From Phyllosticta citribraziliensis (taxonomy: Eukaryota): 64,000 nt of DNA. Where the stretch lies: assembly GCF_038025025.1 (NCBI RefSeq), contig NW_027117340.1, forward strand, positions 1,054,001-1,118,000, in the 5' to 3' direction. A program made the position numbers and the translations under genes. The notes below the pieces were generated by a model. It was not told where the DNA came from, did no database searches, and saw only the letters and a list, made by a program, of their open reading frames with translations. Every line of letters begins with the position of its first letter. The first letter of the stretch is position 1. Below are positions 32,459-53,397 of this stretch, piece by piece.

Positions 32459-33776
32459 TTAACGAGCACCAAGCGACTGCAGTGCAATCTGCAGCTCCTT
32501 GACTGCCGTGGGAACATCTTCGAAGTTCAACGCCGAGATGGCCCACTTGGCGTGCTTTTGAGCATTCAAGATCGAGTCATCGTCGTTCTTATATGCCCCT
32601 GAGCCTGCGCTCTCGATACTAGGTGTCACACCGCCCATTGGCATATCACGCGGTGCTGATGGCGCTGTACTTGGTGCCGGGGGAATGTGGTTCGTAGTCG
32701 ATACGGGAGCGGGAGCAGAGCGATAAAAGTCCTGGGGGTCGGAAGCAGGGGGCTGTGATGCCACAGGGTCCGCAGGTGCTGGAGGAGCAGAAGGTGCCGA
32801 TCCCATTGGAGTATCCGTATCCATCGGCTGCTCGGGAGCAGTTGGTAAACTCGGCACAGCATTTGCAGAAGTAAATGTTGGAACCGTCGGGAAGTATCCT
32901 CCTCCTACCGAGGTTGTTGAGCCCTTGCGGCTGGGAGAGTCCAGCGGAGAAACATCGTGCTGCGGTGGAGGAGGGAAAGGACCCGAATTGGAAGGGCCTG
33001 GCGGGGCAAACTCTCCAGGTCCGGGCCAGTCAGAGGCAGGAGCTGGAGAGGGCGCAAAAGATGGAGGCGCATCTTCCACAGTAGGTTGTAGCGATTGGCC
33101 ATTGTTGATGTTTTGTACTTCGGGGTCGTTCGGGTCGAGAGCTGGAGGAGCTTCTTCCAGGGTGGGAGACGGAGAGCGGACAGGATTCGAAAGGTTCGGG
33201 TCCTCGCCCGCTTTCAAAGCCTTGGCTATACGCAAGGCGTGGTATTTGGCATACTTGGACTTGGCCGCGATTTCAGGTTCAAGTGGGCCCCAGATGGCCA
33301 TGAGGTCCAAAAAGGTCGCGGCTGCGCGGAAAGTGTCGGCTGTTTGACTGTACCAGGTCAGAGCTTTGTGCTGTACTTGGGAGAAAGATTCCATACGCAG
33401 TCACTTTATTAGCCCTTACGGTGTTGTCGGCCCTTTGGAATGTCTCGAGCGCAAACTGCTCCAGGTACGCCTTGGCCGCAACCTCGTCCATTATGGCGTC
33501 ATTGTCGGGATTCTGCTCCTTTATCCTCTCGAGCTTGTCCATCAAGGCGGTCGTGTATGTCATGCATTCCTCGTCATTTGTGTGGAGGCCCTTGCCAATA
33601 ATCTGGTTGACGACATGGTACTCGCCTGCAGCCTCTTAGTCGCTGGTCCTGTCCGCGTTTGGCCGCAACTTACACCAGTAGGCAATTACAGGCTTGATTT
33701 TTTCGAGCTGGGAGGCGCGCAGGGCAAAGCGAGAGATGTCGGCCGGCTTGAGGCCTGCAGGAATTTGGGGCGGCAT
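32459..33776 (-). CDS. VTA1: Vps4 cofactor Vta1 (N-terminal MIT domains, C-terminal VSL)
   Basis: Introns 33626-33673 and 33348-33396. Motifs KPVIAYWC, KSKYAKYHALRIAKALKAGEDPN, a Pro-rich linker and AQKHAKWAISALNFEDVPTA. Confidence 0.95.
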
Positions 33777-38048: not shown

Positions 38049-41000
38049 TCAACCGAACCCACAACTCAAATAACGCATGAGCCTCCTCAACCTGGAGACT
38101 CCCGTTCGCTTACGTTGCTCCGCCTCATCTTCTTCAGAGTCAAACTCAAAGAAAGATACCGGCTCTGGCTGCGGCTCCCACGCATAACACTCGTACCCAT
38201 ATATCTCGCAACGTCCACAAAAAGGCGCGCCATCGCAAAGCTCCCTGGTTCCGTCGATCTCGCAAGGGACGCATACTCCTTCTCGTCGGACAATTTTGCG
38301 GTCATCTGTTCCCAATTCCGTCATGTTTCCCCCGCTCTGTGTCCTGCAAAAGGCTTTGCGGTGGCGGAGGCGACAAAACGATTTCCTTACCGACAGGATC
38401 TCTTCGCCGCCCTCGTAGCTTGATGGATATGGCGAAAAGGCCGTACTTGATCGATGACCACACGATTCGACGTCGGCAAAGGCGCGTTCAACGGGTTCCG
38501 TATCTGCAATCGTCGCGACGTCTTCCCATGAGGTGGTCGAGCTCCGACAATCGCCACTTTGTGCATCTCCTTCCTTCAAATTGGACGCTGGCGAAGGCTC
38601 AAGATGCTGTGATACGCTTGGCCGATTTCCCCACTTCTTCCACCTCGGTCTGTCTGCAGGCGCAGACATCAACGTCGCAAGCGAAAGCATCGAGCCTACA
38701 GAGCCCCTTCGATACCACGATGGCGATGGCGGTGTACGGTACAACTCGACGGGGCTGTCTGCGCGAGATCTGGAGCCAAAATTGAGACTTTCACTCTCAT
38801 CGCTGTCGCTGTCGTTTTCAGGCGCAGTGTAGTAGTCGACCTCGGACGTCATCGACCCAGACGCGCCATCACTACCACCACCTCTCAGCCTCAAACGACG
38901 GTTTGAGTGGCTTCTGAGTGGAACTCGGATACAGCAGCATAGCGAGCCTTGGCTTTCCTCTCCAATCGATCCTGTAGACGCCACTGAAACTGCTCCACCG
39001 TCACGAGCGCCATCTTTCGTGGGCAAAGTGCGCTTTTTTGCCGGACGCAACTGATCACATTCGAGCATAAGGGGGATGCACCTCTCGCACGGCCTCTGAC
39101 CCTTGTGCTCGACGTGCCCGGTGGCAGGTTCTTGGCCAAACTCGCAGTGGGTGCAGCTGCTTGACCCACGCTTGGCAGATTTGCGAGAAGACCGTCCTTT
39201 GGGCCTGAGGAGGCGCAAGTCCAGTGTCTGAGAAACGATTGTAGCGGAGGAGCTCGAGGGAGCAATGATCATGATCGAGGGGTTGCTGCTAGGAGTAACG
39301 GTGGAGTGCTGAACTTGTTCCTGTCGATCCCACAGTTCCCCTGCCTCTTGTTGACATTGCCAGTTCACAACGCGCAAATACGACTCGATTTCTGCCCTTG
39401 ATCGGCGACGAGAACGAGGAGGTTCGTGGCTTTTCGTGGCTTCAATCTTGCCTGGGAATGCTTCGGGAGCTGCTTTTGCACCTCCCTGATTGCTCCCCCT
39501 CGTAAACTCAGCGGGAACAGAAGTGTCGGCAGGCGATGTGAACTCATCATCAAAAGCACCATCGAGAAAAGCCCATGGAGCAGGCCCCGTACCGCCGTTT
39601 GGATTGGCAGTTTCGCCAGGAGGAGAGTCAGATGGTCCTGGCGAACCGTCGCCGTTCATCATGTGTGGACCGTCGCCATTCTCCATGTCCGGACCGTCTC
39701 CATTCTCCACATCCAGATCGTCGATATCCACCACGTCCGGAATGGCCCCAGACATCATGTACAGATCGTCGGGATTTATGATGTGCGTATGGTCGCCATT
39801 CACCACGTCCGGACCAGCGCCATTCACCATGTCAGGAATAGCCCCAGACATCATGTACAGATCGTCCAGGTCGTCATTCACCACGTCTGGAATGACGCCA
39901 GACATCATGAACAGATCGTCCAAATCCATCATATCCGGACCGGTGCTATACATCATGTGCGGACCGTTGCCATTCGTCATGTCCGGAACTGCGCCATTCG
40001 TCATGTCCGGGCCGGCGCCATTCATAACGTGTGGACCGTCGCCATTCATCATGTGTGGACCGTCGCCATTCATCATGTGTGGAGCGTCTCCATTCATCGT
40101 GTGTGGACCGTCACCATTCGCTACGTGCGGATCTGCTCCAATCAACAAGCGCAGGTCATCGCCATTCGCCATGGCCAGACCGCCGTCTCCATGGTTTTGG
40201 TCCTCGGGACCGTCCTGCGCCGTATTCTCCTCTCCTGTTTCGCGGGAATAGTTCGAACTGCTATCAGACTTGTCCTCTTCGTTTGCTCCCTCGACAACGG
40301 CATAATGTACAACTTGGAAGGCCGCGTGGAAATGGAGCTCGCCGTTTTGGATCTCGCCGGCAAACGGTAGTCCGTTCGGAAAATCCAAGTACACAATTGT
40401 GTCACGCGAGCGATTCTCTGGTTGCCGACTGGGTATTCGCCGTGCGCCCGCTTGATGAAAAAACGGGGACGACGAAGTATTGCCTGAGCGTAGATTCTGT
40501 CTTCGCCATCTTTGAAATTGAGTGCGCTGACTGGTATGAGTGCCAGCTCTCCTTAGCCCCTCCCCAGTTGGATTTTCTGGGTTGATGTGAGCTTGTGGTA
40601 GCTCTGGCAGCTCTGGCTCCGGCCGTGGTATTGTCCCGGGCTGGTCGAACAGAGTCACCCCATCTAGCGAGCTGGCATCTCCATACCGGTTCCTGATACT
40701 ACTTCCAGCCAGCGCTGCAGTACTTGCACCATCATGACTCTGAGATTGTGCTCGTGAAGAAGCTTGTCGACTCCGCGAACGAGATTCTCGACCACTACCT
40801 CGCGGTGGAACTCTCGTGGTACGTCCAGGATAGGGACTTCGATTTCGCGGTGGAGCTCTCGAAGCGTTTCCAGGATAGGGATTTCGATCCCGCGGTCGAG
40901 AACCGGCCCGTCCTGGAGGGCTCATCGACCTGCGTCTTCGAATAATTCGCGCCACGATGCTCAAAGCTACCACCATAAGGCTCCGAGCTACCTGATGTCT

Positions 41001-41774
41001 ATCCCCCACAAGTATGCCCGCAAGATCAAGGCCAGGACCCGATGCGTCGACGGCCGGGGCGGGAGGATCCTGACGGCGCCGCCCGCCCAACCTGCGAAAG
41101 AAGTCCCTCGTCCGACCGCCTCCTCGGAGTCTGCTGGTGAATGACGAGGGCAAGCAGCCGCGCTTTGAGTCATGGCCTAAGGCCTGGGCGACATCTCTAG
41201 CCGTCTGTTCTGCCTCGGTCTTCCCCTCGTCCTCTTCAATCAACGCTCTCGCATCTTCGTCATCTGTGTCTTTCCAACTGCGCTTACGTTGGTACAAGGG
41301 GCTGGTGGGATACGGTGAGGGCGGTCGTGGCCGACGCTGGAGGCGAGCACTGCTGCTGGAATCGGTAACGTCGTGGCTCTCATTTTCGCCCCGCGTAGAC
41401 AGCGACAAGGACCGTGTCTTGGGAAACTTTCGTGGTGGAGAGGGCATTGGAGTCAAGTTGAGACCCCCAAAAGGATGAAGGGGGTGCTGCTGTGGCGGCG
41501 AATGGCGCGGAGTCAACCTGAGGCGATCAAACGGATGGAGAGGCTGCGCCGGCGAGCGGCGCGGTGTCAGATGGTTCAGACTACGGAAAGGATACAGGTC
41601 ATCCCGCTGAGGCGGAAGATGGAGCGGCGTCAATTCCATACGTCGAAGCGGACCATACAGGATCGAGTGATTGGAATTCTTAGTGTGAGTCGGCGACGTC
41701 CTCGGGGTAACAGTCATGAGGCTCAACAGAGGCTCTGGCTCTTGAGGCTGAGGGCTTTGATTCAAGCCCTCCAT
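38049..41774 (-). CDS. Large low-complexity protein with two Zn2Cys6-like clusters, internal repeats and two LRGG motifs (probably the 3' part of a gene starting at 43534)
   Basis: 1241-codon ORF in the same frame as the upstream ORF, separated from it only by TAG at 41802-41804. Confidence 0.7.
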   Translation of the reverse strand: MEGLNQSPQPQEPEPLLSLMTVTPRTSPTHTKNSNHSILYGPLRRMELTPLHLPPQRDDLYPFRSLNHLTPRRSPAQPLHPFDRLRLTPRHSPPQQHPLHPFGGLNLTPMPSPPRKFPKTRSLSLSTRGENESHDVTDSSSSARLQRRPRPPSPYPTSPLYQRKRSWKDTDDEDARALIEEDEGKTEAEQTARDVAQALGHDSKRGCLPSSFTSRLRGGGRTRDFFRRLGGRRRQDPPAPAVDASGPGLDLAGILVGDRHQVARSLMVVALSIVARIIRRRRSMSPPGRAGSRPRDRNPYPGNASRAPPRNRSPYPGRTTRVPPRGSGRESRSRSRQASSRAQSQSHDGASTAALAGSSIRNRYGDASSLDGVTLFDQPGTIPRPEPELPELPQAHINPENPTGEGLRRAGTHTSQRTQFQRWRRQNLRSGNTSSSPFFHQAGARRIPSRQPENRSRDTIVYLDFPNGLPFAGEIQNGELHFHAAFQVVHYAVVEGANEEDKSDSSSNYSRETGEENTAQDGPEDQNHGDGGLAMANGDDLRLLIGADPHVANGDGPHTMNGDAPHMMNGDGPHMMNGDGPHVMNGAGPDMTNGAVPDMTNGNGPHMMYSTGPDMMDLDDLFMMSGVIPDVVNDDLDDLYMMSGAIPDMVNGAGPDVVNGDHTHIINPDDLYMMSGAIPDVVDIDDLDVENGDGPDMENGDGPHMMNGDGSPGPSDSPPGETANPNGGTGPAPWAFLDGAFDDEFTSPADTSVPAEFTRGSNQGGAKAAPEAFPGKIEATKSHEPPRSRRRSRAEIESYLRVVNWQCQQEAGELWDRQEQVQHSTVTPSSNPSIMIIAPSSSSATIVSQTLDLRLLRPKGRSSRKSAKRGSSSCTHCEFGQEPATGHVEHKGQRPCERCIPLMLECDQLRPAKKRTLPTKDGARDGGAVSVASTGSIGEESQGSLCCCIRVPLRSHSNRRLRLRGGGSDGASGSMTSEVDYYTAPENDSDSDESESLNFGSRSRADSPVELYRTPPSPSWYRRGSVGSMLSLATLMSAPADRPRWKKWGNRPSVSQHLEPSPASNLKEGDAQSGDCRSSTTSWEDVATIADTEPVERAFADVESCGHRSSTAFSPYPSSYEGGEEILSVRKSFCRLRHRKAFCRTQSGGNMTELGTDDRKIVRREGVCVPCEIDGTRELCDGAPFCGRCEIYGYECYAWEPQPEPVSFFEFDSEEDEAEQRKRTGVSRLRRLMRYLSCGFG
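39645..40172 (-). repeat. Coding 24-nt tandem repeat, ~20 degenerate copies (NGDGPHMM / DLDDLYMM / SGAIPDMV)
   Basis: Repeated plus-strand unit ATGTGTGGACCGTCGCCATTCATC read directly. Confidence 0.9.
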
Positions 41775-41801
41775 CTTGCATTGCAGTGAATCATAGGAAT
41801 T

Positions 41802-43534
41802 CTATCCTTCGATTGAGTCTTCCGTCGGTGCTGGATTCGAAAGCACTAGCCCTTGATTAGAGGTTCTGACTTCCGCTCCAGTTTCGCCCAACTGGAGAGC
41901 CGCACCACCTTTTGACGCGTGTGGTGAATGAAGAAGCCCAGCGCCAAGTCGAGAGGAATTTTGAGAAGAGATTCCGGAATCACATTGCGAGACAACTCGG
42001 GAACCATGACGGGAACCGTGCTGTGGCATACTTCTATTCGATGCCTCCATGTCCGCCAAAGGGTCAGGAGTTGGTAGTGACTGGACAGCCGCTGCTCTGG
42101 CATGGTCCCGCTCCGACGACGACCGGAACAACTGCTGCGGGACGTCTGAGAACGATGATTCCAGGGGACGATGAGGTGTCACCGGGCGGAGGGCGCGGTC
42201 AAGGGTAGGCATGGAAAGAGGACTCAACAAGGCGTCGCTCGACCTCTGAGTTTCCTTTACGGAAAGGTCTTCAAACTGAGACCCGATGTCTCTGAGGGTT
42301 GCATTCGTCGCTTTGCGTCTCTCCTGGTGCAATAGAGCGAAGTCTGTTGGGCTGAACGGCTCTGCCTCTGACGCTTCTTCTGGCACAACCTCTTCCGGTC
42401 CTGGGGATATCAGGTAGATTTCTTTTCCATTTTCATCCACTTCTGAATCATCGTTGATATCGGCATCTCTCGAGCGTTGGTTGATGTTGCCCAGGAGCGC
42501 CGAAATACTTGCAGTCAATCTTTCACGAATGGACTGCCCAAAAGACGGCCTGAAGACGCCACGACCGGGCTCTTCACCGACGGCATCATCATTCGGCAAG
42601 TCACTATTGCTGTGTTGCCCAGAATGCTCAAATTTTGTGTCCAGAGGATCATGGTGTGCAGCGTCCGACTTGTCCTCCTGACCATCACCTCGAGAGGTCA
42701 GGCCAGGACACTTGCTTGAGCTTGGGCCGACTTCCTGGGTATTTAGACGTTCAGGATCGTCAGCAGAATGAGGCTCCTCTCCATTTCCGCCGCCTCGAAG
42801 GATGTAAGCAATCGACATTGTGCGAAGGTGCAAGCGTTCTTCAACCGCCGGAGTCGATACAGAATCAGAACGACCTGCACCAAGCGAACCTGAGTCTGAT
42901 GTCAAGGGGGGCGGGGAGGAGCCCGGGATTTCCTTATCTGGCGCTACATCTGATGGCGTCTTTTGCTTGGTCGATCGAGTGTCATCGGGTATAGAAAAGA
43001 TTGGTGCCGCGTCAAGGGAACGCGCAGATGCAGCATCGTCTTTCTCGACCTTTTCGCCAGGAACCACGTTCTCATCTAATCTTCGCTGCGGTCGCGTTGG
43101 AATGAGTTTCCATCTCCTGTCCTCGCCATATTTTCCGTCGGCAATGGGTTTTGGAGGGACAGGATTCTTGAGCGGACCGGTAATAAAGGGACGTCTATCA
43201 GGCACTTTGTCGCATTCACAGACGCGGATACTATCGAATCAGTCAGCTTGTCCCAAACACAACGTCGAATCCCAAGAACCTACTACTTGTCCAGCTCCTC
43301 CTTATCTTCCGTGTGCTTGCCAATGAAGATGAAGGCGGCATCTTGGAGGGTCCCAAACGGTCCGTGGATCCTCTGTATATGCTGAACGAGCCTAGCAGCC
43401 GAGCGCCACTTGAAAGCGCGTTGTTTCTTCGTTTTGCAAAAGTCGCACTGGCGTTCGCACTCGCAAATGGAGAATTCACGGGCGCCGAGCCAGTAGTCTT
43501 CATTGTGTCGGTGATTCTTGTTGGGGCAAGGCAT
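41802..43534 (-). CDS. Hypothetical protein with an N-terminal C2H2-like finger and an LRGG motif (5' part of the 38049-43534 locus)
   Basis: ATG at 43534; CDFC...HIQRIH. Intron 43231-43283 (GTAGGT...GCTGAC...TAG) joins in frame to the 41802-43205 ORF; 559 aa to the TAG. Confidence 0.65.
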
Positions 43535-45783: not shown

Positions 45784-48053
<2,270 letters not shown>

Positions 48054-48725: not shown

Positions 48726-51700
48726 TCACTGCTCGGTTGCCTTCGGCTTTCCCAGCTTCAACTTCAGCTTAAACCCGCCTGCCTTTTCGCCCGTCGGCGT
48801 ACCCACTGGTGGGCTGCTTGCTGGCGGACTCATGGCCGAAGGCGTTGTGCCAGGCGTTCCCCCCTGACCTGACGTGTGGTTTGTAGGCCGGGGCAAATGA
48901 GATGGAGGTATGGAAACACTCATCGGCCGCGCGCTACCTTCTTTCCTCCCTTCCTTTGCCTCGTTATGGGCCCTGGGAATCTTTGGCGGACGAGGATTTG
49001 GGTCTTGATGTAATTTGTGCGTCTTGTGCTCCTTGGATTTGGGTACCTTGTGCGAGTTCGACATATGTGGCTTGGGCCCGATCGTGGGTTTTGGTCGAGG
49101 CGGACGCGAGATTATGTGTGCAAGTTTGGATGGCGGAACCCTGAGCTTCAATATTTTACTCGGAGCCTTTTTCCTTTGCCTCTCCTCGGGCGGCGGCATA
49201 GAGGAAGGAGTCGATGCTCTGGAACCGCTAGGAGTAGGGCCTCTAATGAGAGGCATTGACGGCTTGGCAAAAGATGAGGGCGGTCTTTGAGGCGGCTGCG
49301 GAGTTGGCGGTTTGACCATCGGACTTGAGTGAGAAGAGCTCGATTTGATGCCAATGTTCGACGGCCTCGATGAAGGAACAGACGTCGATGACTTGAAATT
49401 TGAGCTGCCGGCCGGTCTGACAGGTGGTGCAGAGGGAGTCGCAGCGGGTGACGGGACGCTGATCGACTTTGGTTTGTTCGAGTTCGCAAGATTGATCTTG
49501 AGCGAAACAGAGCTGTTGGTCTTGTGGAGGTGTGGTGGAGCAACCTGGTGGCGCTTGTTGGGCTCATCGGAGACCGAAGGCCTTTTGCGCTTTTCCGCAA
49601 GTTTTTGTGCAAGGATGGGCGCCTGCTCTTCCTTGATTTTGCTGAGAGGTTTGGTGCGCCTATGAGAATTGCGGAAGAAGCGCATCTTGGCCTTGCCGAG
49701 ATGTTGCGCGCTCCAATAGAATGGATATGTCATCTGGACGAGCAGAGATGCTTTCGGCTCGTATATCAGGGAGCAGATCTCGAGCAACTGCCCCCACTCT
49801 CTCAATCCCACGCGAGGAGACTTGAGAGCCAGAAGAAGTTGCTCCTGGAGCACCTTGTTGTCCGAAAGCTCCATCTTTAAAGCCTTCTTGGCACCTTCGA
49901 GTGTCTGCGTCCTCTCAATCATCGCCGCTCTCGATTCGGTAGACGCTTCTTGTTCAATGACTAGGCCGCCGACTTCAGCTGATGACGACTCTTCCTTGTG
50001 CTTGACACCAATTGCAATACGCCCGAGACCGCGACCGACAATGTAGTGGAGCTGCTCCCGGAAGTACGGCGAACGATCGTACGCCAGAAGGAAGATGATG
50101 AGGCGAAGTATGCCCCCTTGTTCAAGCATGTTTGAATCGACGAGACACTGCAAAGCCTTTAGACGAACGAGATCCGAGGCCATCGGGTTCGTGTAGTGCA
50201 GGAACTCGAGTATTCCTCCCTTGACTACTCCCGTTTGAGTGAGTATCCGGTGACATTCGAGAGCTGTGACGGTTATGATGTTGTGGTATGAAGGTATCCA
50301 CTCGTCAAGGCGACAGTGGCGCTTGATCTCATCGAGGGCATCCTTTTGAAACTCGAGATCGTCTTGCTCGTCGTCGTCAAAATCGAAGGTAATGGTATTC
50401 GTGTCCTGATAGGTTAACTGCTCCGCAAGACAAGCAAGGAGTGTTGCAACATAGTGGCCATCCGAAAACTGTTTCTTATGTCAGTAGTTCAAACGAATCA
50501 GAGAATCGGTCAACATACAGCATTGTGTGAATTGTCGTTGAACTTAAGCTTGTCGAGAATCCACCTCTTGGCTCTCATCAGACCCCTTCCATTTGGCTCA
50601 CGCACTTTGGCAATGGCCCTTGGGATAGCACATTGCACAAGATATTGGTTGCGGTCAGAAAAGTCGTTGGAGCGGACCATTGCTGAGCCTGGAAGACAAA
50701 ACATATCTTGAAAGGCCTTTTCGAGATGAGTCAGGCCGATCCAGTTGAGGTCGACGTCCTCAGCGCGGGCCTTGGCACAGTTCGCGAGTGCCTCAGCAGC
50801 CAAGGTGCGAATGCCATGGAAGTATCGACGATCCATAAGTGTCCTTGCAAAGACTGTCGAGAGCAACTTGGTCGGCTTCTGTTGCGAGAGATACTGCAAA
50901 GCTTCGGCCTGTGCCACCACATCGGGATCCTGCTGAAGTTGTGCGACCCACATCCAGACTGGCTGGCTGAATGTGATTTTGCCGATCCACTCAAAGTCGG
51001 CATCAACCCGGATCCACTCAAATTGCTCAGTGCTCATGATTTCTTCCTCGTCTTTGGACCATTCCTCAAACCCCCATTCTTGGATATCTTGGTCGGAGTC
51101 CAAGACGTCGCCCAAACAGTAAAGAGGTATTTCGTCAGGAATCTCGCCATCGCCGTTGAGATCGATTCCGGCAGCAGCAGCGGCTCTCTCTTTCTGTCTG
51201 CGGTTGCGCTTCAAGCGAGTGTACTTGGTGTTGTAGGTCGCGTCGAATCTCGTCGTCACATCGTTGATGGGGACGATATGATCGTATGGAGTCCCGTCTG
51301 CTTCGTGAACCGTAAAGGTCATTGACCCAGTGAAAAGCCGATTGGCCTTCTTCATGGACAGGCCAGAGTTGCGCTCTTTAATGTCCTTCATAAAAGCGGC
51401 AGGGTCCAGATCACGCCCAGTCTCACCCAAATCACTACGCTCACCCTGAGTCTGCCGAATGGCAAGTTCGATAACCGACTTCTTCTTGTTGAACCGTTGA
51501 GTGACATAGAAGTGCGGACAGCCAGCTCCATAAACCCACTGTTTCCAAAAGTCCGGGATGGGCTTGCTCTCCAGGTACTTGTCGACGATTCCTGTAAAGT
51601 CCTCGGTGGAAATCAAGCCATTTGTGAGCTTCCCAGTCTTGGCATAGAGAAGGACCTTGTAAATGACTTTGGTTATGCCCAGCTTGGCCATCCTCTTAAT

Positions 51701-53397
51701 CTTCTGATTCAAGATAAACATGACCAAAGGTGCCTTCATCTCCATGAATTCTATTTCCGATGGATGCAGCGCCAAGTAGTCTCCGAGGACTTGGAGAGAC
51801 GGGCGATTGACGTCCAGTTCCACGACGCGGTCGGCCATTTGCTTCATCCGGAGCCGGTGCTCGTTGCGGCCGCACAGCAGCTCCATGAAGTCGTCGGTCA
51901 TGAAATGGGATAGGGCGTAAATCACCCACCAGTCCTGAGGACTCTTGGGCAAGACATTGACTCCGATCCATTGGCTGGCCAAAGCGTGGACGAGCTTGTG
52001 CGTGACCGGGAGGATAGGATCCAGCACATCCTCGGGGTAGAGCAGAGAGTTGCGACAGAGTGTGACCGAAGCGCCATGCGCAAAGTCCTGAGGCAGGTCA
52101 TCGACGAAGACCAGTTTGTAGCTTGTAAACGGGTATGAAATGTAGGTCTTGCTGAAATGATCGGTAGCCTAGAAAGAATTAGCACGGTGCCGTATCCATT
52201 GGACTCGAGGGTCTTGCCTTTGGAAGTGGCATGCACGTGTTCCTAACCTCGTCGCCCCTTCCGGGCAAGCAGAAGCCGTGGACACGGATTGCCGCTTGGC
52301 CCATCATTTCGTCATCGTCGCTCTCTCGAAGGTCTGACAAGTCGACGTGCTCGAAAGGGCCAACGGCGAGAGAGACGTGCTGAGCCGCGACGGCACTTTC
52401 ACATTTGAAAGTTACGGTCTTGTGCGAAGGATCCTTGGGGTCGACGATCTGGGTGACCGTCAGAATTGTTCTTCAAATTATTAGCACATCTACCTACATC
52501 ATCGGTCAAGTCACCAGAGCAAATGACGGAAATTTCCAAAGCCTTGTCTTCTTCCGTGAGGCCACTGCAGTCGAGGGCGCCGTCAGACACGTGGACATCG
52601 GTATCGGCAGATGCGCTTTTGGCAAGGCCATTTGTGAGCGTCCCGTTGGGCAAATGACCGTTGACGCCATTCTTGGTCGGCTCGCGAGCCTTCCGGAAGA
52701 TGTCCCCAACTGTCCTTGGGCTTTTGACTGAAATGTCCCACGGGCAACGCGTAGTGCCATCATCTATACAAGGGAACAAGCAGGATGCCGTGCCGGGAAA
52801 CTGAGAGTTTCGCGTGTACACGTGCGGGTATCTTGGGTCGTTGTCTTCAACTCCAACGAAGTGTAGACCGTCCCGGAAGTGCTTGATCTCATAGCGTATG
52901 ACGACTCTTAGCGGCGCAAAGACCACGCCTCCATCATCCGCCGATCTCAGTGCCGTTGTGTTGTTCAACAATCCTCCAAACCCGTCTCCAGAAAATGGGT
53001 CCTGCTCTTTTATTCGCACTCCACGCGGTATGTGCACGACAAGGTCGTCGTCGGCGACTCCGTCGAGATCTTCCTCCACTTTTCGGCGCAAAGCAGCATG
53101 ATGAAAGACCGTACTCTTCGATGACAAGTAGATGTGGGAGTGAGGATCGTCGTGCTCCCAGTGGGTGTCCTTCTCGTTCACGGTAATGCGAAGGATACGG
53201 GCTTGCCGACAATTGAAGCGAAGATGATCCAGGTCCCGAGAAAGCGGTTGCACGTTGATGAGTGCTTCGCCACGCACAGAGCGTCGCAGAAAGTCGATGT
53301 CCAGGTCAACCTTGACGCTGTCGACAGAGAAGCCATGACCGGGCGCCGAAGCGTCAGCGGCCGCGGCCGAGGAGGGATTTTCGAATGGACCAGGCAT
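48726..53397 (-). CDS. TAF2: TFIID subunit Taf2 (M1 aminopeptidase-like fold)
   Basis: Introns 52449-52497, 52169-52217 (GC-AG) and 50469-50518. Motifs FPCIDDG, LVHALASQWIG, TVHEADGTPYDH, EWIRVDADFEWIG, QLQQDPDVVAQ and MDRRYFHGIR. Confidence 0.95.

Follow-up and report, generated by a model that had tools for sequence, protein, structure and literature searches.

The ubiquitin-type tail sequence LRGG, followed by a glycine or an alanine, recurs in a fast-evolving protein so far found only in the genus Phyllosticta, and a comparison of three species shows LRGG[G/A] to be a selected multi-copy short linear motif that is kept by purifying selection. The protein is encoded in a stretch of 64,000 nucleotides of the Phyllosticta citribraziliensis genome (assembly GCF_038025025.1, contig NW_027117340.1, positions 1,054,001 to 1,118,000), hereafter called the window, by a gene that occupies positions 38049..43534 of the minus strand. 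The gene begins with an ATG at 43534, ends with a stop codon at 38049-38051 and comprises about 1,809 codons when an internal TAG is counted as one position. The locus is a real gene; its product, some 1,800 residues long, is largely disordered and contains a small number of islands rich in Cys and His. What we know of the motifs suggests, short of proof, that they are cutting or docking sites.

Reverse-complement translation places three copies of LRGG in the window protein, each with a Gly directly after it, at the positions (Table 1) given by an earlier reading of the same DNA, hereafter the original prediction. In the spliced model LRGG begins at residues 227, 784 and 1531 and RGG at residues 228, 785 and 1532; the putative cuts would fall after residues 230, 787 and 1534, one residue before each of the approximate positions first proposed (231, 788 and 1535). 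The codon sets differ from site to site, as had been pointed out, and the flanks are also unrelated, which rules out a recent DNA duplication of the motif. From the composition of the protein itself, 0.083 LRGG and 0.007 LRGGG are expected; the original prediction had roughly estimated 0.01 LRGGG. Among 20,000 shuffles, at least three LRGG turned up in two and one LRGGG in 146, and three LRGGG in none, so that the motifs lie well outside what chance would give. Every RGG (3/3, the total for 1,809 residues) and every GGG (3/3) of the protein falls within the LRGGG motifs, and when the 12 orderings of L, R, G and G were compared, LRGG alone was repeated in the protein. Nine LRGG occur in the six frames of the window, three of which are the sites described here. 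The likeness to a ubiquitin-type tail reaches further upstream at two of them: LRGG is present three times, RLRGG at sites 2 and 3, and LRLRGG at site 3, where it is identical with the tail of ubiquitin and ISG15.

Relatives of the protein were found only in P. citricarpa/paracitricarpa (the P0004 cluster, five members with models of 1,466-2,080 residues) and in P. capitalensis (the P0005 cluster, ten members). P. citricarpa is a citrus pathogen, and P. capitalensis is a common endophyte. Word-indexed searches gave P0004 and P0005 only (2 of 7,995 scored, 1 of 6,442 and 2 of 8,000), and the same two were the only proteins at E≤0.001 in an exhaustive HMMER search of 1.84 billion representatives with the C-terminal 442 residues as query. 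A metagenome scan produced 550 pattern matches, none of which was confirmed as a relative, and Protein Atlas gave no usable match for the C-terminal part. Judged by its identity to the orthologues (43-50% in P. citricarpa and 27-37% in P. capitalensis), the protein is evolving fast; in a three-species alignment 279 of the 1,809 window columns (15%) are invariant. Ten invariant runs reach four residues or more (FSIC, LVQH, HGPFG, TPRT, PRPP, RLRGGGR, RLRGG, YYTAPE, SWEDV and LSCG). The longest of them, the seven-residue RLRGGGR, is site 2, and the RLRGG run is site 3.

LRGG is also the sole four-residue word with at least three copies in all three species (three in the window protein, three in P. 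citricarpa and four in P. capitalensis, where 0.04-0.08 would be expected). The original prediction had proposed asking whether LRGG islands are conserved amid divergent flanks, and they are. Across the three species, all four LRGG columns are invariant at site 2, against 13 of 80 flanking columns, and at site 3, against 16 of 80. At site 1, LRGG is fully conserved between the window protein and P. citricarpa (4/4, against 31/80 in the flanks), and the whole of YILRGGG is identical. The P. capitalensis counterpart, NLRGGA, lies nearby and is displaced in the alignment, so that the three-way count there is 1/4; the fourth copy of this species reads SLLRGGA. If positions are numbered from the putative cut, Leu at P4, Arg at P3 and Gly at both P2 and P1 are present at all ten sites of the three species by the definition of the search. 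The residue that follows, P1', is small at all ten (Gly at seven, Ala at three) and is never Pro or a bulky residue. Arg occupies P5 at six of the ten, these being sites 2 and 3 of each of the three species, which yields R-x-R-G-G as in ubiquitin.

The sites lie in segments without predicted structure, between conserved Cys-rich islands. The protein is rich in Arg, Gly, Ser and Pro, with 74% disorder-promoting residues, and Pfam recognized no family in three pieces of the window protein (E≤1) or in two full-length orthologues (E≤0.1). The original prediction had seen no ubiquitin fold ahead of the sites, and none was found by AlphaFold2, PDB sequence searches or Pfam. For the piece that carries sites 2 and 3, AlphaFold2 returned a mean predicted local distance difference test score (pLDDT) of 31.6, with none of 1,200 residues at 70 or above; ahead of site 2 it predicted a single short helix within the preceding 100 residues, and ahead of site 3 no element at all. 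In the site 1 piece (mean pLDDT 43.9) the 145 residues before the site contained no secondary-structure element and remained below a pLDDT of 50 except at residues 28 and 94-96, and confident structure was confined to two helices after the site. The AlphaFold2 runs relied on alignments of three sequences, and this shallowness limits the meaning of a negative fold result. When the 104 residues ending at each GG were compared with all PDB chains by phmmer (E≤10), the three queries gave 0, 5 and 3 matches, none of them ubiquitin-like. A cryptic beta-grasp fold before the sites is thus ruled out as far as three-sequence AlphaFold and PDB sequence searches can tell.

The modules that the sites would delimit are largely as first described: a Cys/His finger, a TP-rich array, Met-rich repeats and two Cys clusters are all present (Table 1), although the label C2H2 attached to the finger came from spacing alone. 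For this exon 1 region there was no Pfam match to a C2H2 profile at E≤1, and the PDB search gave only an unrelated match at E=1.6; for the N-terminal 110 residues of P0004, Protein Atlas offered only leads below 0.9, with zf-C2H2_2 in 12% of the members of one cluster. The Cys spacing of the two clusters is reminiscent of fungal Zn2Cys6 proteins (Gal4/PUT3) and of GATA fingers. Cluster 1, with its C-x2-C-x18-C-x2-C core, matches the Zn2Cys6 domain of PUT3 weakly (E=0.024, the best match of the phmmer comparisons with PDB chains), and one P. capitalensis orthologue carries the UniRef name 'GATA-type domain-containing'. However, cluster 1 has no Pfam match at E≤1 and possesses five Cys in the window protein, being one Cys short in P. 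citricarpa as well and reaching six in P. capitalensis. Cluster 2, in which all six Cys are invariant, had been described as near-canonical Zn2Cys6. This description, drawn from the Cys spacing, is not confirmed: the cluster has no Pfam match at E≤1, its PDB matches all lie at E>0.6, and its first loop is x8, whereas the Zn2Cys6 spacing (PF00172) is C-x2-C-x6-C-x5-12-C-x2-C-x6-8-C. The orthologues, at E≤0.1, likewise have no Pfam match to a Zn2Cys6, GATA or C2H2 domain.

The gene has two exons, which stand in different frames and therefore require the 56-nucleotide intron between them. Annotated orthologues join the same two blocks, and an MPC start is common to the window protein, P0004 of P. 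citricarpa and P0010/P0013 of P. capitalensis. The intron is still unspliced in the sole sequencing-run contig that covers it. The original prediction had put the whole array into one reading frame and one chain. This has to be given up, since exon 1 is read in another frame and the long exon 2 contains, at codon 559, an in-frame TAG that had been overlooked, between sites 1 and 2 in a poorly conserved linker. The original interpretation is thus supported in part: the LRGG islands pass the comparison with their flanks, and the single chain of the proposed polyprotein is broken in this genome.

The frame is open on both sides of the TAG, for 478 and 1,250 codons. In its context, EDSIEG*NSYDSLQCK, aligned by eye with QDPIEEEQLHDSLQSK of P. 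citricarpa, the residues just before the TAG are paired with coding sequence and the TAG itself stands opposite a Glu. Among 80 in-frame GT..AG candidates for an intron spanning the TAG, none combines a good donor, branch point and acceptor. A 45-nucleotide candidate (GTGCTT...GATAG) was ruled out, as it would delete residues that align with P. citricarpa coding sequence. Four sequencing runs were compared over the locus, all as contigs, which carry neither strand nor expression level; X2 and X3 have uncovered stretches, the TAG region included, on which they are silent. A contig of run X1, from the same organism, crosses the TAG and shows neither a difference nor a joint there; the run is perhaps the assembly's own source and so is not independent. 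Because no credible intron was found and because the preceding residues align with P. citricarpa coding sequence, we read the TAG as a genuine stop in this assembly. It would stop translation after 558 residues, ahead of sites 2 and 3, unless it is read through, and in this genome translation that begins at the annotated start may not reach these two sites.

Frame breaks are not confined to the window. Four P. capitalensis entries (P0010, P0014, P0016 and P0018) end after an independent break that comes after about 480 residues, in the poorly conserved linker that also holds the TAG, and the split models of this species consist of N-terminal parts of 436-508 residues and C-terminal parts of 1,088-1,287 residues. 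P0015 and P0017 are separate models of the downstream part only, and P0013 spans the break region but lacks 50 residues there when compared with P0005. P. citricarpa keeps a single open frame, as do three further P. capitalensis entries. The gene either tolerates a split in the linker or decays in some strains. Since long frames remain open to either side, the breaks are more likely to be recent or to be tolerated.

What could the motif be for? Our leading model, which we put forward tentatively, is cleavage after Gly-Gly by a tail-reading protease that accepts bare RLRGG, of the ZUFSP/Mug105 type. The disordered linkers contain [R/L/I/N]-L-R-G-G-[G/A] three times, or four times in P. capitalensis, and this sequence reproduces positions P5-P1 of the ubiquitin/Rub1 tail; in the model, a cysteine protease that recognizes the ubiquitin tail would bind the LRGG copies, in an extended conformation, in its substrate cleft. 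A cut after Gly-Gly would then release the N-terminal finger, the TP-rich middle, a part with the repeats and Cys cluster 1, and a C-terminal module with Cys cluster 2 and a CaaX-like end. The likeliest enzymes would be deubiquitinases (DUBs) that take bare RLRGG through the R-x-R pair, such as ZUFSP and Mug105, rather than USP or UCH enzymes, which require the ubiquitin body. We favour cutting because two sites agree exactly with ubiquitin over P5-P1, because P1' is exclusively small and because the sites stand in linkers. According to the available excerpts of one study, ZUFSP-family DUBs, fungal Mug105 included, cleave RLRGG-AMC, with a Km of about 70-90 uM in the enzymes measured, and ZUFSP-type clefts bind the five-residue tail alone (PMC8776766). 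ZUFSP, ZUP1 and Mug105 are candidate enzymes here and not relatives of the protein. Their preferred minimal substrate, RLRGG recognized through R-x-R, coincides with the invariant core of sites 2 and 3 (PMC8776766), whereas they are known only as ubiquitin-chain proteases.

Several known systems resemble this arrangement in part. The precursors of ubiquitin, Rub1/NEDD8 and ISG15 likewise have (R)LRGG followed by an extension, which in their case is removed by cysteine proteases specific for ubiquitin or its relatives; here, in contrast, there is no beta-grasp and no PDB or Pfam match to ubiquitin, and the motifs are internal to a disordered protein of 1,800 residues. Sde2 offers the parallel of a non-ubiquitin cellular protein that is activated by a DUB cut after a di-Gly. 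It is cleaved at GGKGG, under the direction of its ubiquitin-like (UBL) domain, by Ubp5/Ubp15 in S. pombe and by USP5 in human, and its conservation is similarly concentrated around the motif, as far as the excerpts of that report go (PMC13572447). Nevertheless, Sde2 needs N-terminal UBL residues, some of them conserved with ubiquitin, while the Phyllosticta protein has no UBL and carries three or four sites instead of one. In the excerpted text on USP1, self-cleavage occurs at an internal di-Gly (G670/G671) located within an inserted domain and not at the end of a ubiquitin fold, and the cut is made by the DUB active site (PMC4326527). Beside the ZUFSP family, it sets a further precedent for cutting where no ubiquitin fold precedes the site. 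USP1 differs in having a catalytic domain of its own, none being detected here, and those excerpts give no LRGG for it (PMC4326527). The polyproteins processed by coronavirus PLpro are similar in layout, with bare LXGG plus a small residue in the linkers between modules and an enzyme that is also a DUB, to judge from the parts available (PMC10126577, PMC10933793). PLpro also cleaves host proteins, and LXGG occurs in the available portions of the texts on this subject (PMC7850364, PMC10081575). However, those polyproteins are viral and encode their own protease, whereas here the gene is a chromosomal fungal one in which no protease domain was found.

A number of points weigh against cutting. 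Everything said about it is something that we infer. The motif was picked for its likeness to ubiquitin and may be a coincidental RGG-type motif. No beta-grasp fold was predicted and no ubiquitin-like match at E≤10 was found before any site, and a protease domain in cis is lacking as well, with no Pfam family in the window pieces or in either orthologue and no confident fold predicted. Site 1 is without the P5 Arg. The common objection to such cutting is that DUBs require the body of ubiquitin, and Sde2 bears this out: the mutations that impair its processing all lie in the UBL region, according to the excerpts at hand (PMC13572447), and the excerpted survey of the ZUFSP family describes its members as absent from many organisms and the Mug105 type as belonging to a narrow fungal lineage (PMC8776766). 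The conservation of the motif is evident, and it is phylogenetically shallow on the present three species-level sequences from a narrow clade. Finally, in view of the TAG and of the frame breaks in some P. capitalensis strains, the gene may be dispensable or in decay.

The last of these points can be developed into an explanation of its own, in which the gene is a decaying or dispensable lineage-specific one, a pseudogene in this genome, and the motifs are relics without present function. In favour of decay one can cite the TAG at codon 559, which no credible intron would take out, the independent break in the same linker of several P. capitalensis entries and the inconsistent gene models of P. 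citricarpa (1,466 to 2,080 residues); no run on record as RNA covers the locus, which is not evidence either way. However, both halves stay open, over 558 and 1,250 codons, which would not last under neutral decay, the motif islands are conserved across proteins of only 27-50% identity, and P. citricarpa has an intact single open reading frame (ORF), as have three P. capitalensis entries. We consider decay quite improbable. Docking without cleavage is more probable. On this explanation the copies, spread along a disordered scaffold, would bind one partner other than a ubiquitin enzyme, and the likeness to the ubiquitin tail would be a coincidence. Conservation and multivalency suit any ligand-type linear motif, most known linear motifs being ligand sites rather than cleavage sites; neither a ubiquitin fold nor a protease was found by Pfam, PDB searches or AlphaFold2, and the finding was itself chosen because the motif resembles ubiquitin. 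Docking nevertheless leaves unexplained why two sites in all three species agree exactly with P5-P1 of ubiquitin and why P1' is small at 10/10 sites, and neither a partner nor a recognized class of motif suggests itself, the literature searches having yielded nothing on such a motif. It is a real possibility, if on balance a doubtful one.

The RGG motifs of disordered regions form a familiar class, and the arginines could be methylated by a protein arginine methyltransferase of the Hmt1 type, or the RGG could contact RNA. This would suit the Arg-, Gly-, Ser- and Pro-rich composition, with its high share of disorder-promoting residues, and the confinement of all three RGG of the protein to these motifs. 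Yet RGG boxes are clusters of several closely spaced RGG/RG repeats, and the copies here are single and 550-750 residues apart, three RGG in 1,809 residues being no such cluster; the invariant Leu before the Arg and the Gly or Ala after GG would also go unexplained. An RGG function seems to us unlikely. The bare tails could also act, as the original prediction had suggested, as decoys, that is, as uncleaved pseudo-substrates filling the pockets of DUBs, of the ubiquitin-activating enzyme E1 or of other tail-binding proteins. The same motif identity and conservation speak for this, as does the binding of the five-residue tail alone by ZUFSP-type clefts. However, the Km for RLRGG-AMC, about 70-90 uM in the excerpts available (PMC8776766), would be weak for a stoichiometric inhibitor, and with Gly or Ala at P1' nothing in the sequence would block hydrolysis. 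Of all the explanations considered, we find the decoy the least probable.

Returning to cleavage as the preferred reading, one can extend it to a cellular polyprotein without ubiquitin folds, in which a ZUFSP-type DUB would cut bare RLRGG to give a soluble finger module, a TP-rich module and a farnesyl-anchored Cys-cluster module, each acting independently, and the free ...RLRGG ends would be read by di-Gly-binding domains or even activated in the manner of a modifier. The independent breaks in the one linker, the TAG and the P. capitalensis frame break, would on this extension be tolerated because the modules work separately. A polyprotein is a plausible reading, although the stop codon undermines it in this genome; the full scheme, with its free ends and anchored products, strikes us as highly improbable. 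Our literature searches, which brought up papers on ISG15, PLpro and DUBs, found no description of multi-copy bare LRGG in a fungal or other cellular non-ubiquitin protein. The available excerpts on the ZUFSP-type enzymes describe no non-ubiquitin RLRGG substrate (PMC8776766). If cleavage takes place, the Phyllosticta protein would be the product of a chromosomal and not a viral gene that is nonetheless processed at bare ubiquitin tails lacking a ubiquitin fold, a natural non-ubiquitin substrate for the peptide-accepting DUBs of the ZUFSP family, and a simple reporter of such DUB activity that could be mutated from GG to AA. If it is not cut, it would still show cleanly how several copies of a linear motif are preserved while the disordered protein around them, confined to one genus, evolves very fast. 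The practical weight of either outcome is limited by the number of species-level sequences, three, and by the interruption in this genome.

The C-terminal end of the protein bears on the fate of its last module. The window protein ends in CGFG and the orthologues in CGLA and CGMA; LSCG is invariant, RRxxR[YH] precedes the Cys, and in 3/3 species this Cys stands four residues from the end, as in CaaX boxes, where two mostly aliphatic residues and X follow it. The C-terminus therefore looks like a polybasic CaaX-like box, and the last module, the one with Cys cluster 2, may accordingly be lipid-anchored. It resembles the polybasic CaaX C-termini of Ras-type proteins in the invariant Cys at -4 after a basic stretch, and differs from them in the window protein, where X is Gly, an unusual CaaX ending. 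The original prediction had also suggested N-myristoylation of the last product, which would begin with GSDGAS. The N-myristoylation pattern is G-{EDRKHPFYW}-x2-[STAGCN]-{P}, and after the putative cut it occurs at two of ten sites, namely site 3 of the window protein and of P. citricarpa, and at none of the seven sites other than site 3. P. capitalensis has Ala at P1' of its site 3. Post-cleavage N-myristoylation is thus ruled out as a conserved feature.

Table 1. Features of the LRGG-containing gene and its surroundings, in window positions (nt, nucleotides)
Feature	Positions	Strand	Remarks
Exon 1	43287..43534	-	248 nt; in another frame than exon 2; from ORF lists and spliced model
Cys/His finger-like region, FSICxCERxCxFC...LVQHxQxxHGPFG	43352-43474	-	in exon 1; FSIC, LVQH and HGPFG invariant
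Intron	43231..43286	-	56 nt; GTAGTA...GCTGACT...ATAG
Exon 2	ends at stop 38049-38051	-	long; carries all three LRGG sites
Site 1, YILRGGG	42786..42806	-	LRGG at 42789-42800; codons CTT CGA GGC GGC
Skipped 81-nt segment	42414..42494	+	GT..AG ends on plus strand; CAGG at both edges; runs X1 and X3
TAG, codon 559	41802..41804	-	between sites 1 and 2, in poorly conserved linker
TP-rich array (TPRTSP, LTPRRSP, HPF repeats)	41379..41717	-	TPRT and PRPP are invariant runs
Site 2, SRLRGGG, then RTR	41115..41135	-	RLRGG at 41118-41132; LRGG codons CTC CGA GGA GGC
24-nt tandem array, 19.5 copies	39645..40119	-	Met-rich repeats of NGDGPHMM type; no counterpart in orthologues
Cys cluster 1, C-x2-C-x18-C-x2-C-x6-C	39057..39155	-	about 55 residues before site 3
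Site 3, RLRLRGGG	38874..38897	-	LRLRGG at 38877-38894; LRGG codons CTG AGA GGT GGT
Conserved island GSxxS...YYTAPE	38817-38834 (YYTAPE)	-	after site 3
Cys cluster 2, C-x2-C-x8-C-x5-C-x2-C-x6-C	38187..38273	-	six Cys, all invariant
C-terminal RLRRLMRYLSCGFG	38052..38093	-	basic stretch and Cys at position -4 (CaaX-like)

The run contigs also reveal variation along the gene. A segment of 81 nucleotides (Table 1) is skipped in runs X1 and X3, which come from the same organism and different studies, and X1 also contains the unskipped form; the skip is either an intron of the antisense strand or an in-frame deletion allele of 27 codons. Four ORFs of the plus strand over the locus were compared with Pfam, and no family was found. 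In X1 the contig depth falls from about 400-490 to 72 around 42400-42500. This fall coincides roughly, by alignment, with the start of the short P. citricarpa/paracitricarpa models (1,466 residues), and there may be an internal transcription start near 42400-42500. A related organism, B (run X4), mostly 85-95% alike, is without 75 nucleotides at 41838-41914, 75 at 42038-42114 and 48 at 39483-39532 among the differences listed. These deletions, all multiples of three, are consistent with an open, fast-evolving coding frame there. At the 24-nucleotide array the same organism has an insertion of 24 nucleotides at 39666 and a deletion of six at 39864, which indicates that the copy number of the repeat varies.

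The neighbours of the gene are ordinary eukaryotic housekeeping genes, Vta1 (PF04652/PF18097) at 32462-33400 and TAF2 (PF25316/PF25577) at 48729-52168, both on the minus strand. Between the LRGG-containing gene and TAF2, two plus-strand ORFs at 46049-47793 match PF10712 (NAD-GH) strongly (E about 1e-48). PF10712 is suspected to represent the opposite strand of Hsp70 genes, in which case a minus-strand Hsp70 gene may sit at these positions.

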